A DNA stretch of 32,537 nucleotides, from the UHGV virus genome UHGV-0139594. One strand, given 5' to 3'. The notes under the pieces were generated by a model that saw nothing but the letters and a program-made list of their open reading frames with translations, ran no database searches and had not been told where the DNA came from. Made by a program: the position numbers and the translations under genes. Position 1 is the stretch's first letter; every line of letters begins with the position of its first letter. The DNA is from a virus. This document shows positions 21,114-28,709 of the stretch, in pieces.

Positions 21114-22344
21114 CACCATTCCGTCGAATACGCTGGTTCCGCTGTTTTATGCGGAAATGGATAACTCGGCGGCGAATACTGCACAGGACAGCGGGGCATC
21201 GTTGCTGATTGGTCACGCCAATAACGGTGCAGAGATTGTTGCCAACAGTCTGGTGCTGATGCCGTCGGCAGACTATGCACGCCAGATTTGTGGTGCGGGA
21301 AGTCAGCTGGCGCGTATGGTCGAGGCTTATCGCCAGACCGATCCGTTTGGCGAGCTGTATGTGATTGCCGTTCCGGAAGCCACAGGCGCGGCGGCAACGG
21401 TTACGCTGACGGTGACCGGAGCAGCAACCGAAACCGGCACGGTGAATGTTTATGTGGGACGTACCCGCGTGCAGGCACCGGTGACCAACGGCGATAACGT
21501 CACGACGATTGCCAGCAGTATCCAGGATGCCATCAATGCCGTTCCGGCCCTGCCGTTTACGGCCTCATCTTCGGCAGGCGTGGTCACGCTGACCGCGCGT
21601 CATAAGGGGCTTTGCGGGAATGAAATTCCTGTCAGCCTCAATTACTACGGCTTTGGTGGGGGCGAAGTGCTGCCAGCGGGCGTACAGATTGCCGTGGCGA
21701 CGGGGAGCGCCGGAACGGGCGCTCCGGTTCTCACCGGTGCGGTGGCTGCAATGGCGGATGAGCCGTTTGATTATATTGGCTTGCCGTTCAACGACACGGC
21801 CTCCGTTAACACGCTGGTGACCGAGATGAACGATACCAGCGGTCGCTGGAGCTATGCGCGTCAGCTGTATGGTCATGTGTATACGGCAAAGATCGGCACG
21901 CTGTCAGAACTGGTGACCGCAGGTGACCAGTTTAACCAGCAGCACATTACCCTGGCGGGATACGAAAAAGACACTCAGACGCCAGCCGACGAGCTGGCGG
22001 CAAGCCGTACCGCCCGCGCAGCGGTGTTTATTCGCAACGATCCGGCACGTCCCACGCAGACCGGTGAGCTGGTGGGTATGCTGCCTGCACCGAAGGGGAA
22101 ACGGTTCACGATGACCGAGCAACAGACCCTGCTGTCTCATGGCGTGGCAACGGCGTATGTCGAAAGTGGGGTAAACGCTCTACGTGGCATACACAACGAT
22201 TTACAAGAGCTAAACGAAAGGCTTTACCGTGGTTTTAGCCTGACCGTCGAGGAAGTCGAGATCACCTTGTCCGGCATATTCAGATTCAACTTTCAGGCCC
22301 AGCAGCGCGGTAATCAGATCCACTTCAACACGGTTTGCGTGTGA
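21097..22344 (+). CDS. Contractile tail sheath protein (Mu gpL-like), probably 3'-truncated
   Basis: MTISFNTIPSNTLVPLFYAEMDNS ... GSQLARM ... VTLTARHKGLCGNEIPVSLNYYG match Mu-like sheath signatures. Protein is 415 aa against an expected ~490, and the sheath-like sequence seems to stop near 22150. Confidence 0.7.
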   Translation: MTISFNTIPSNTLVPLFYAEMDNSAANTAQDSGASLLIGHANNGAEIVANSLVLMPSADYARQICGAGSQLARMVEAYRQTDPFGELYVIAVPEATGAAATVTLTVTGAATETGTVNVYVGRTRVQAPVTNGDNVTTIASSIQDAINAVPALPFTASSSAGVVTLTARHKGLCGNEIPVSLNYYGFGGGEVLPAGVQIAVATGSAGTGAPVLTGAVAAMADEPFDYIGLPFNDTASVNTLVTEMNDTSGRWSYARQLYGHVYTAKIGTLSELVTAGDQFNQQHITLAGYEKDTQTPADELAASRTARAAVFIRNDPARPTQTGELVGMLPAPKGKRFTMTEQQTLLSHGVATAYVESGVNALRGIHNDLQELNERLYRGFSLTVEEVEITLSGIFRFNFQAQQRGNQIHFNTVCV

Positions 22345-22716
22345 ACGGTAATGAGCCTCAGAGAAATCATTAACCGCTACCAGCATAGCATCAGAACGGT
22401 TTGGATATTGGCGGCTGTATTGTTCCAGGTCACGAGAAGTAACAGCGTTAATACTGCCGACGTGTTTCATCTGGAAAAGTTTGTTTGACCATTCCTGACG
22501 TTTAGAGGCGTTCCAGTCGCTTTGAGCGTAAGGCGAGGTTTCCCCAGCTACCTGCACAAACTGATCAATCAGGTCGGTAAGAAGAATGCTGTTTTCTGTA
22601 TGATATTGCACATCGAACAGATCGAGATTAGTAATCAGGGTATTAAGTGCATTCTCATAAGCAAAAGGAGTTACTACCGCAGTATTAACGCCAAAATATG
22701 TTGATAAATCATTCAT
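22210..22716 (-). CDS. Hypothetical protein (168 aa), last gene of a minus-strand operon
   Basis: ORF in a 3-gene minus-strand cluster; its 3' end overlaps the sheath ORF tail. No confident homology. Confidence 0.45.
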   Translation of the reverse strand: MNDLSTYFGVNTAVVTPFAYENALNTLITNLDLFDVQYHTENSILLTDLIDQFVQVAGETSPYAQSDWNASKRQEWSNKLFQMKHVGSINAVTSRDLEQYSRQYPNRSDAMLVAVNDFSEAHYRSHANRVEVDLITALLGLKVESEYAGQGDLDFLDGQAKTTVKPFV

Positions 22717-25627: not shown

Positions 25628-26221
25628 TTAGAAGGGTAGTGAATCATATATTGTGCTCTCACTTTTGAGATCAATTATCAAAGAGTCAAAATCATTTTCA
25701 CAAAGATAGATATTCTTTGAATCTAATGCTCGTTTTACAAAATCTTCTGTTTCTTCGTGCGGTGGTTTCTTCTTATCAAGGGAAAGAAGCCAAGTAAAAA
25801 TTTCGGGCCGCTCAGGGAACTCTGGCTCTTGTGTTTCTTCTTCAACGATGATTTCGGAAACATTCAATATTTCATTAGATTCGTCTTCTTTCTCAGAAGG
25901 ATCAGGTAGTGATGATTCTCCTTTTGGAATATCAAGCACTCGATAAAGGTTAGAGCTTCCTGGTCGTGCATCTTTTATAATTAATCCCATTTCGAGCAAT
26001 TTCTTAACCCTTTCTTCTGCTGCTCTTGGTGTTATGCCAAAAACATCGCCTATCTTAGCGTAAGAGGGAAATGCACGATCAAACCCTCTCAGATAGCAGT
26101 AAAGGTTTTTAGCACTATCTGTAAATTTATGCCCGTTTACTTGGCTTATTTTTAGAATCCACATAGGAACTTTTACAAATTGTTCTTCATTAATCATTAA
26201 AAATCTCCTTGATGTAATCAC
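25628..26221 (-). CDS. Rep-like winged-helix protein (putative replication initiator of an iteron replicon)
   Basis: N-terminal wHTH (NLYCYLRGF...SYAKIGDVFGITPRAAEERVKKLLEMGLI) resembling replication-initiator DNA-binding domains; acidic C-terminal half; iteron array about 1.2 kb upstream. Confidence 0.55.
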   Translation of the reverse strand: MITSRRFLMINEEQFVKVPMWILKISQVNGHKFTDSAKNLYCYLRGFDRAFPSYAKIGDVFGITPRAAEERVKKLLEMGLIIKDARPGSSNLYRVLDIPKGESSLPDPSEKEDESNEILNVSEIIVEEETQEPEFPERPEIFTWLLSLDKKKPPHEETEDFVKRALDSKNIYLCENDFDSLIIDLKSESTIYDSLPF

Positions 26222-26442: not shown

Positions 26443-26625
26443 TTATTCTTTCTCTGCTTCTGCCTTACGCAGTTCATCAATAATTTTTAGTGCATCGTCA
26501 AAGCATTTTTCACGCTCTGGATAACCTCTACTCCTTGCCATATTACGATTCATTACTATTTGATGTCGTGTTAGCTCACCTTTTTTAAATGCCTCTGCGA
26601 CGTGTTTCGGTGTAAACCATTTCAT
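26443..26625 (-). CDS. Hypothetical small basic protein (60 aa)
   Basis: ORF immediately upstream of the RHH gene on the same strand. Confidence 0.45.
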   Translation of the reverse strand: MKWFTPKHVAEAFKKGELTRHQIVMNRNMARSRGYPEREKCFDDALKIIDELRKAEAEKE

Positions 26626-27454
26626 AAAAACTCCTTATTCAGTTAAAAGAAAAAAAACACCTTGCAAGCCTGACGGCTTCAAAGTGCATTGATTTTGATT
26701 ATTTAGAGAAGAATGTTTTTCTGTCCCTCTAATACCTATTATTACATATAAAGAAACATTTGTCAATACCCTTTTCGCAAAAATACGATCTTTTTCAGCA
26801 GCTTAAAATTTTTCTTAGCAATTCGTGCTCTTATGAGTACTCCTATTCTTCCTTATTCTCTAAAACGCTCTCTGACGAGGTTTTGATAAATACAATACAT
26901 TCCCTTATGTAGAGGCTGTTTAGCTCGCCAGAGGCTTATTTAAGCGGTAGAAACTTATTTAACCTTCAACTACTAAAACCATTCTTTCTTTTTTGTTTGT
27001 TGTTGGTTGTTGTCTGTGTCTATGTGCTAACATCGCTAATGCGTAGCACACAAGGTTATTGCACTCGTCAGAGTATTGCACAATAGATTTTCTCTTAAAT
27101 AGATTGATGATCGTTAGATTGGCGTAAGCCTCATCAATGGAACTATTGAAGCGCACAGCGCATAGACACTAACAACCATTCGCTTACGCTCAGGTTATTG
27201 CACATAGTAGATTACATATTCGTTGTGAGCGGCATTAGCGAACATAGATCTACTAACTAACATCAACAAACAAAAACTATGTGTTATGACAAGCAGTCTA
27301 ACGACTAACACTCTAACTTGTGCAAGGTTCTGGCGAATGCCAATAGATTAAGGGATAGTCGTTAGACTCCCCTAACGGGTATCCCTATAATTATTCTTTA
27401 AAGATAAAGGAATTTATAAAAGATAATTTAATTGTAGTTTGATAGTTGATCTAA

Positions 27455-27600
27455 TAGGTAACAAAATTCTGTAGGGGTGGCTAACAGTTTTCTGTGGGGG
27501 TGTCTAACATAATTCTGTTAGGGTTGGGGTAACAGTTTTCTGTTAGGGTGCATATTTCTTTAAAAGTTAAGGATAACAGAATTCTGTGGGGGTAGCTCAC
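27455..27600. repeat. Iteron array: five copies of a ~23-bp unit (AACAnnnTTCTGTnGGGGTnG)
   Basis: AACAAAATTCTGTAGGGGTGG, AACAGTTTTCTGTGGGGGTG, AACATAATTCTGTTAGGGTTGG, AACAGTTTTCTGTTAGGGTG, AACAGAATTCTGTGGGGGTAG at roughly 23-bp phasing. Confidence 0.7.
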
Positions 27601-28709
27601 AGTGACCTACCGTTACATCCATTTATCACATAACATCTGTGCAATGATCTTCTAAAAGTGTTTCTTGCTACCAAAATTAAACATCTAAAACAGGCTTAAA
27701 TTCAATGTAATTGATGATTAATCCCTGTGTAATTCCTACGTAAAAATTCAATGAAAAGTAGCTTAAAAGTGCAATTCTTACTTTCTTCACTTTTACATCA
27801 CTTTCGCAAAGCCTTGTGTAATGCGGCTACAGCGCACTATCAGAAATTGTTGATTAAAAATCAATCTATTATTTGTCGAACAAGTTTCTTTCACGTGTTG
27901 AAAATTTATGTTTAAATTTGCTTTCAATCTTTAATGTGCAATCACTATCAACATAAAAATAAAAAACCTTCTATTATATTTCATAGCATACAAAAGTCAA
28001 TAGAAGCCCTCTCGTGCTCCTACGTAAAAAATCCACCACTTTTCCCCTGATACATCAACTCAAGGCGTTCCATGTGTTCCTTAGTGCATATTACGATTAT
28101 TATGTTAAATGGATTTTGGCCCATATTTTGACCTGCACCCGCATAAACACTGGTTTCATCGCTTACAGCCCTTGTGAGACGTGGTGCTGTTTCTAGCATC
28201 TGATCCGACATAAAACCGATCATTCTCGTGTTTAGTGAAAGTTTAGTGAGAGACATTACAGAAAGGCTTTCTGTGTAATGATTTAATAGGTAAAAACGAT
28301 GTTGATTACGCAAGAAAATTCCTTGCTGATATTTGGGGATTCTGGATTTTCCAGATCGGGGGGCGGTGAAAATCGCGTTAAGCACTTCTCGCAATCTAGC
28401 CATAAGGGAAGGGATAAAGGTATTTAGATGTATTTATAGCTATTTATGGCTATTTATTTTTTATTTACCTTAATTTAAAAATAGCCTTATAAATCAATAA
28501 GATACAGGACTATCTGTTTATATTTTAATCAATTAAATCAAGTTTAATACCCTTAAACCACCTGAAAATAACCTTAAATACCCCAATAATTAATTTTAAC
28601 GATTCCTGTGCTCTCTCCTACTTTGCAAAAAGGCAAAAAAAGCCCATAGAGGCACAAAAATATTAAAACCAATAACTCAATAATGCCTCTACAAGAGCTT
28701 CTCTAACTG

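Follow-up and report, generated by a model that had tools for sequence, protein, structure and literature searches.

The 32,537-nt stretch UHGV-0139594 (hereafter the window), filed as a virus genome, carries between a small replication operon and an array of iterons a segment, positions 26980 to 27290, that is unusually rich in inverted repeats, and the question is what this segment is for. A preliminary description had taken it for a large imperfect palindrome of the kind seen at single-strand origins (sso), origins of transfer (oriT) or regulatory regions of plasmids. The window is E. coli chromosome, and the segment lies in a 35%-GC island that runs from about 22.7 kb onward, inside a 2.08-kb gap (26626-28709) without RefSeq annotation. 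We conclude that the segment is best read as a mosaic, partly degenerate copy of a conserved folded domain of a replication origin region. Its role may be that of a + strand single-strand initiation or entry signal (an ssi-like priming signal), the reading that we tentatively prefer.

Self-complementarity and conserved fold of the segment

The segment does lie between replicon genes and iterons: an open reading frame (ORF) for an initiator-like winged helix-turn-helix (wHTH) protein occupies 25628-26221 on the - strand, and five iterons occupy 27459-27603. The complementary arm strings of the preliminary description each occur once and where it had placed them (GTGTCTATG at 27016, CATAGACAC at 27161, TTGTTTGTTGTTGG at 26993 and CAACAAACAAAAAC at 27264). 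Of the supposed three copies of TTATTGCAC, exactly two are present in the region (27056 and 27195), the third being GTATTGCAC, which shares only ATTGCAC at 27075. Dinucleotide shuffles of 26980-27290 (n = 500; n = 300 for repeats of at least 7 nt) and fold z-scores bore out that the self-complementarity exceeds what base composition would give. The longest exact inverted repeat measures 13 nt, a length reached by two of the 500 shuffles, whose longest repeats averaged 7.9 +/- 1.0 nt; exact inverted repeats of at least 9 nt number three against 0.2 expected (0/500 shuffles), and those of at least 7 nt number 11 against 3.3 expected (1/300 shuffles). RNA-fold z-scores were -3.47 for the + strand and -2.32 for the - strand, and -5.05 and -3.57, respectively, over 26960-27400; two coding controls and the sequence to the right of the iterons scored -0.9 to +2.0. 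The 38% GC of the segment and the T/G and A/C runs of the outer arms might suggest that AT-rich DNA of low complexity is self-complementary here by chance; this reading is refuted by these shuffles together with the cross-lineage conservation and covariation described below, and we give it almost no credence.

Although the self-complementarity is real and non-random, a single large palindrome as the functional unit did not hold up. In relatives, which are designated here by L numbers, the arms are not inherited together: L012 retains GTGTCTATG without CATAGACAC, and L015 and L002 retain CATAGACAC but have lost GTCTATG. The outer arm pair, low-complexity T/G against A/C sequence, persists in an altered low-complexity form in all close variants, of which 19 distinct ones were collected from E. 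coli genomes, viral contigs and metagenomes, and neither arm pair takes part in a consensus fold computed from 14 close variants. Retained in the close variants are local stems with compensatory changes (27023-27050, 27063-27074 and 27352-27385); rather than forming a single hairpin, the "palindrome" breaks up into a mosaic of local stem-loops. The variants carry a unit A alone, a unit B alone, a tandem of A and B, or A/B hybrids, where unit A has the order ...CGTTAGATTGG-GCGTAAGC...GCGCACAGCGCA...GCTTACGC-TCAGGTTATTGCACA and unit B the order ...CGTTAGATGG...GCGCACAGCGCA-AGACTATTTAGCCTTACGCAAGCCGTAGGC-TATTTGCACA. The 65-aa ORF called across the region (26959-27156, - strand, GTG start) had fairly been dismissed as spurious: it is unannotated in RefSeq and broken in relatives, the longest stop-free stretch over it being 31-33 aa in L003, L004, L009 and L019.

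Beyond the close variants, diverged islands with the same gene order (L024 beside thiM, L025 at tRNA-Leu) were traced through matches to the first 48 nt of the query, and a Franconibacter relative with the same layout was found by a protein-based scan. Altogether the relatives comprise about 120 loci, with 48 clusters of the non-coding region and at least six iteron types. A module of about 48 nt, CATTCCCTTATGTAGAGGCTGTTTAGCTCGCCAGAGGCTTATTTAAG (26900-26948 in the window; 1481-1560 and 1690-1740 in L002), is present in one or two copies per element and is the sole part that BLAST still detects in diverged lineages. Most clusters, whatever their iteron type, have one to three ATTRCAC motifs, the G motif GCGCACAGCGCA, a small hairpin, a three-way junction and the E motif TGAGCGG, followed by about 90 nt of further hairpins (in GC-richer lineages only), GATC, the AT-rich stretch, the iterons and a reversed ATTRCAC motif. 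The three-way junction is closed by GTGC(A/C)...(T/G)GCAC, and closing stems of the form GTGYAA...TTRCAC recur throughout this shared layout; therefore, TTATTGCAC is the 3' strand of these recurrent closing stems. The G motif, which resembles a tandem heptad and has three copies in L018, is invariant across lineages with different iterons, and most lineages also have the E motif.

The domain is conserved as a structure across lineages with unrelated iterons. Over 17 lineages the mean fold z-score was -4.7 for the + strand and -3.6 for the - strand, with the right flank and coding controls near 0 or positive. The three-way junction occurs in five unrelated sequence versions, and one helix keeps its 3-nt bulge in the forms GGC-CAGCC/GGCTG-ctt-GCC, GGG-TGTCC/GGACA-ttt-CCC and GGC-TGACC/GGTCA-ctt-GCC. 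Alignments made with MAFFT only gave poor consensus folds. For the covariance model R1, the structure was drawn by hand on the L024 lineage and the rest were realigned with Infernal. A search of 26 sources with R1 gave 21 full-length matches, one per source hit and all in identical orientation, with E-values of 1e-21 to 5e-3 in GC-rich lineages and 4e-5 to 6e-3 in window-type relatives; three very divergent lineages (the L070/L099/L104 type) gave no match. In the R1 alignment, 95.8% of cells are standard pairs, compared with 82.0% in shuffles (0/500), and at 21 of the 34 pairs both partners have changed. When the partner is shifted by 1-3 columns, pairing falls to 31-46%.

The fold is read on the + strand, 5' to 3' toward the origin, because the non-Watson-Crick cells comprise 17 of G.U type, at seven distinct pairs, against one of A.C type, and because in 12 of the 17 lineages the fold of the + strand is better than that of the - strand. 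The core junctions fold equally well on both strands. A + strand fold counts against a purely duplex role, but it does not by itself separate a + strand RNA from + strand single-stranded DNA.

Candidate roles of the folded domain

We propose, tentatively, that the island replicates by means of a lambda-O-type initiator that would bind the dyad-containing iterons. Outward from the iterons, the presumed AT-rich unwinding stretch would be followed by the folded domain, with its short stem-loops and three-way junctions, its GTGYAA...TTRCAC closing stems, and GCGCACAGCGCA and TGAGCGG between them. The initiator would open the AT-rich stretch, a helicase would travel left, and the + strand, as the leading-strand template of the leftward fork, would fold and offer an ssi-like landing site for a primase or primosome; the oppositely oriented ATTRCAC motifs past the iterons would serve the rightward fork. 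In favor of a signal acting as DNA, the domain always abuts the unwinding element, and the layout is the same in divergent E. coli lineages and in Franconibacter. The motif ATTRCACR occurs 13 times in the window against 5.4 expected, with seven copies within 1.2 kb. Its copies lie on the + strand left of the iterons and on the - strand right of them, and the same flip, which is expected of signals for two diverging forks, is seen in L024, L025 and L011.

Several points weigh against such a priming signal. We infer the single-stranded DNA role from position and strand, and a strand-specific, covarying, multi-junction fold is equally expected of an RNA. No primase or helicase family was recognized among the scanned island proteins, and therefore a route through host DnaG or PriA must be assumed. 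The right side has the motifs yet no excess folding (z = +0.7), and the two sides are thus not equivalent. The window's own copy matches R1 weakly (11.9 bits, E = 0.25) and is without the GC-rich 3' sub-domain of other lineages, and the pair counts come from a model-fitted alignment, many rows of which are closely related.

Known origins provide partial parallels to the proposed priming signal. Host-primed ssi signals (the G4 type, the phiX174 n' type and the G-site of plasmid R1) are multi-hairpin stretches of single-stranded DNA that lie on the leading-strand template, at a distance of a few hundred bp from the site of opening, and serve to start synthesis. That class is defined by functional assay, namely complementary-strand synthesis that resists rifampicin, in one orientation, on a single-stranded template, and the likeness seen here is one of + strand fold and position rather than of compared sequence. 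The lambda origin combines the O protein, four dyad iterons, an AT-rich region and a flanking palindrome of about 28 bp, and it lies inside the O gene. The present region resembles it in its dyad iterons, in the order of iterons, AT-rich stretch and palindromic part, and in an O-like initiator whose N-terminal DNA-binding part can be exchanged. However, the origin here lies 1.2 kb upstream of the initiator gene rather than within it, and the structured part is modular and exceeds the lambda palindrome tenfold in size. The IncQ plasmid RSF1010 has ssiA and ssiB, hairpin signals on opposite strands inside oriV and beside the iterons (PMC8567376). As in the present region, the RSF1010 oriV joins iterons, an AT-rich stretch and strand-specific hairpin signals, each for one direction, that together resemble a large palindrome (PMC8567376), and the placement of hairpins by iterons is shared as well, the domain here abutting an 82% AT stretch and iterons in all lineages. 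The IncQ signals are, however, two near-identical 40-nt hairpins on opposite strands, whereas the folded domain here lies only left of the iterons, extends over 200-450 nt with junctions and has no known sequence in common with ssiA. Furthermore, the IncQ signals are read by the plasmid's own primase RepB', and the plasmid encodes the RepA helicase as well; no such protein was recognized among the scanned island proteins here.

The main alternative, possible though in our judgment rather doubtful, is that the domain is transcribed rightward, toward the AT-rich stretch and iterons, and that the product, a structured non-coding RNA or a long leader of the same sort, would activate or prime the origin or serve copy control or immunity. 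The covariation at 21 of 34 pairs, the conserved unpaired motifs and 3-nt bulges and the three-way junctions would all suit an RNA, as would the 17:1 excess of G.U-type cells and the better folding of the + strand that was seen in 12 of the 17 lineages. At 26760-26789, a weak promoter-like site on the + strand stands back to back with the operon promoter, the terminator-like leader of the operon would fit RNA-based control, and the adjacent 60-aa protein has a faint match to an "RNA-binding regulator". However, a sigma-70-like + strand promoter upstream of the domain is absent from L053 and limited to one 9/12 site in L024, whereas the operon promoter scores 11/12 in all three lineages, and there is no terminator at the 3' side of the domain. 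In an Rfam search of the window, tRNA-Thr alone reached the gathering score, and at E <= 10 three chance-level matches fell elsewhere in the gap and none in the domain; L024, L025 and L011 gave no Rfam match. The strand symmetry of the core junctions also speaks against an RNA, and the fixed position relative to the unwinding element more easily fits a cis-acting DNA. Origin-directed RNAs, such as ColE1 RNA II, the R6K activator and silencer RNAs and the RNA-based origins of mycobacterial prophages (PMC7157519), likewise are structured transcripts of several hundred nt that run into the origin. Unlike in those systems, the replicon here has a protein initiator and iterons, and neither promoter nor terminator supports a transcript. 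Transcriptional activation of the lambda origin is another precedent for origin-activating transcription. That the domain represents an undescribed class of large (about 200-450 nt) + strand structured non-coding RNA beside an iteron origin, a class that would link transcription with initiation or else determine copy number or immunity, we consider unlikely.

A double-stranded regulatory array, in which the inverted GTGYAA/TTRCAC, G and E motifs would be putative sites for a ribbon-helix-helix (RHH) protein, the 60-aa protein or a host protein, through which the divergent promoters and the origin would be controlled, and the folding would be a by-product, would account for the conservation of the stem sequences themselves, the enrichment of ATTRCACR, the tandem-heptad-like G motif with its three copies in L018, the RHH-like 56-aa protein and the 60-aa protein encoded next door and the overlap of the 27352-27385 hairpin with a promoter-like site. 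We nevertheless think it quite unlikely: inner hairpins between motif copies remain paired though their sequence is unshared across lineages, and the strand asymmetry of the wobble pairs has no explanation in duplex DNA. From the earlier suggestion of an sso, oriT or plasmid regulatory region, the notion of a cis-acting structured replicon region adjoining iterons stands, and the named families do not. An oriT or a rolling-circle sso is highly improbable even though a short conserved motif comes after inverted repeats and a CS-6-like TAGCGA is present at 27236-27241, since TAGCGA is unconserved (AAGCGA in L019 and L005), the scans of proteins from the window and the related elements turned up no relaxase, no coupling protein and no HUH Rep, 918 of 920 places in E. 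coli are chromosomal, with plasmid matches essentially absent and phage matches at zero, and the replicon is of the iteron/theta type. Very little also speaks for an invertible switch or a resolution site. The 22-nt inverted repeats enclose about 243 nt, a fimS-like size, and in many relatives a small recombinase gene adjoins the right edge of the non-coding region (L002, 2980-3531; L003; L005-7, with 3217-3687 in L005; L024, 5706-6245; L053, 4420-4998; L063, 4512-5072). However, about 70 independent sequences include no inverted allele, the G and E motifs standing in the same order and facing the same way with respect to the flanks in every one, the arms are of low complexity and differ between lineages, and the window has no recombinase gene beside the region. 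Moreover, the non-coding region is the same whether the recombinase is a tyrosine recombinase reduced to its catalytic domain (186-192 aa) or resembles a serine invertase or resolvase (179-183 aa). The small recombinase may act in multimer resolution of an excised circle.

Should the domain be a priming signal, as we tentatively prefer, it would show how a replicon with an O-type initiator starts the leading strand without a loader or primase of its own; should it be an RNA, it would add a new and abundant family to the RNAs of enterobacteria. Elements of this kind are known, and the domain family is undescribed and unannotated. The analysis defines a compact complete replicon, composed of an initiator operon with a putatively attenuating leader, the folded domain, the unwinding element, exchangeable iterons and a motif array on the flank, and the covariance model and motifs provide a handle for annotating such origins and for building mini-replicons.

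Feature map and initiator operon

The features of the origin region and of the adjoining operon are collected in Table 1.

Table 1. Features of the origin region and initiator operon in window coordinates
Feature	Position	Strand	Remarks
Initiator-like wHTH protein, 197 aa, presumed YagK homologue	25628-26221	-	PHROG 270 "replication initiation protein", 1.2e-8
Terminator-like leader hairpin + T8	about 26651-26691	-	read from sequence; operon start codon at 26625
Predicted operon promoter TTGACA-17-AATAAT	26766->26738	-	score 11/12; kept in L024 and L053
T/G-rich left arm, long-range complementarity	26990-27024	+	partner 27243-27276; 22 nt, 86% complementary
Stem-loop TGTGCTA...TAGCACA, inner CGC/GCG	27023-27050	+	minimum-free-energy folds; compensatory replacement
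Two ATTGCAC motifs around small hairpin ACTC-GTCA-GAGT (27063-27074)	27058-27082	+	
Unit A	27122-27204	+	long hairpin GCGTAAGC...GCTTACGC (27122-27189), then ATTGCACA (27197-27204)
Match of covariance model R1	27146-27349	+	11.9 bits, E = 0.25; model from L024 type
Hairpin TAGTAGAT...ATCTACTA, inner TTCGTT/AGCGAA	27205-27255	+	one T.G wobble on + strand
A/C-rich right arm, long-range complementarity	27243-27276	+	
Hairpin GGGATA...TATCCC, inner AGTC-loop-GACT	27352-27391 (stem 27352-27385)	+	compensatory GGGCTA/TAGCCC in L003
AT-rich stretch, presumed DNA-unwinding element	27386-27458	.	82% A+T; beside iterons in all lineages
Five iterons, about 23 nt each, dyad ACAGAATTCTGT (family D1)	27459-27603	+	other iteron types at same place elsewhere
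ATTRCACR motifs, opposite orientation, right of iterons	27638-27942	-	27638, 27726, 27815, 27935; fifth at 28272

The left arm holds the 13-nt exact inverted repeat TTTTTGTTTGTTG/CAACAAACAAAAA. In the stem-loop at 27023-27050, GTGCTA/TAGCAC is replaced by GCGTTA/TAACGC and CGC/GCG by CCCC/GGGG in the L003 and L005 types, and the small hairpin at 27063-27074 becomes TTC-GCCA-GAA in the L003 type. The long hairpin of unit A encloses the G motif (27151-27162), and the hairpin that follows it encloses the E motif (27226-27232) and GATC (27247). The hairpin at 27352-27391 has a loop of 3 or 4 nt across variants with a constant stem, and it overlaps a promoter-like TAGACT-17-TATAAT (10/12) that is aimed into the AT-rich stretch and iterons and could be an operator-controlled, origin-activating promoter.

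Other resemblances in this part of the sequence were considered and dropped. An ERIC/REP-like repeat, brought to mind by TGAGCG, was rejected since the segment occupies 1-4 or 1-2 places per genome, in island context only, and the ERIC primer core is absent from all loci. The string TTGTGAGCGG (27219-27232), which comprises the E motif and its flank, has 10 nt identical to the left half of lacO1, with no matching right half, and is probably a coincidence. A resemblance to a lambda cos site had no supporting feature. P4-like seqA/B/C immunity, with TCTAACGAC pairing with two copies of GTCGTTAGA, was abandoned since L005-type relatives are without the segment of the copy at 27296.

Left of the segment, a minus-strand operon encodes a 60-aa protein, a 56-aa protein and the 197-aa winged-helix protein. 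The last is taken to be a YagK homologue; it matches three PHROG "replication initiation O-like" families (1.7e-5 to 1.8e-4), has a Pfam HTH_36 match below the cutoff, and shares 48-58% identity with the 208-222-aa clusters that are common in E. coli. In alignments of these initiators, the N-terminal DNA-binding part varies with the iteron type and the C-terminal part of about 100 aa is constant and nearly identical. Three different iteron sets lie adjacent to one another in L025 (4930-5300). The 56-aa protein looks like an RHH protein by its sequence rather than by a database match, and PDB sequence searches with the 60-aa and 56-aa proteins gave no matches. The similarity of the 60-aa protein (26443-26625, - strand) to the NCBIfam "RNA-binding regulator" is at E = 0.005, with 17 bits against a cutoff of 100.

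The leader hairpin of the operon is GC-rich, CACTTTGAAGCC-GTCA-GGCTTGCAAGGTG followed by T8, and lies about 40 nt past the predicted transcription start. A paired A/T deletion in L002 and L011 preserves its stem, and the hairpin plus T8, used as a search pattern, retrieved 95 further loci. These features suggest an intrinsic-terminator-like attenuator and an operon that would need antitermination or RNA-based control. The GC-rich lineage L038 has a perfect DnaA box, TGTGGATAA, on the side of the operon leader and promoter, about 40-50 nt inside the non-coding segment. The window has no perfect DnaA box, and a candidate there, TATTGCACA, was dropped as it is off consensus, effectively by a one-base insertion.

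The island and its distribution

The island is a small phage-like integrative element of the CP4-6 family, whose K-12 relative is the cryptic prophage CP4-6; in K-12, yagK is present and the non-coding region of interest is absent. The version in strain FORC 064, accession NZ_CP022664, encodes a tyrosine integrase and Dit-like and tape-measure-like proteins, as well as a 343-aa protein with a weak head-protein match, the same-position 343-aa counterpart of which in L063 matches the lambda-E-type capsid protein. Across the island family (L001, 10619-23334; L063, 1299-11764), an integrase, a lambda-E-like major capsid protein, tape-measure-like and Dit-like proteins and the replicon are found, and no terminase or portal was recognized among the proteins of L001 and L063. 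With their capsid- and tail-like proteins, the islands that host the replicon may represent a phage satellite of a kind not yet described. A literature search on yagK/CP4-6, the motif strings and satellite origins found no description of the element.

Window-type copies are present in 707 of 5,426 complete E. coli genomes and the sister (L024) type in 438 of 5,426, the two counts having been made separately; roughly one fifth of complete E. coli genomes carry the island, and other Enterobacteriaceae carry it too. Window-type copies number 1-4 per genome and L024-type copies 1-2, always in island context, and every copy lies in a 2-kb stretch that annotation leaves unexplained. A plasmid collection gave two matching records, one of which is a mislabelled chromosome, and BLAST against a phage collection gave zero matches.

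Near the start of the window is a tRNA-Thr(CGT) gene (79-154), next to which lies a truncated myovirus-like prophage (169-22344) with an integrase, the large terminase (TerL), an HK97-type capsid and a tail sheath. The prophage breaks off abruptly past the sheath gene, where it adjoins the island, and the island itself is interrupted within its own capsid-like gene (22210-22716), the Pfam lambda-E match belonging to the L063 counterpart. The prophage and the island both look truncated through one deletion or recombination.

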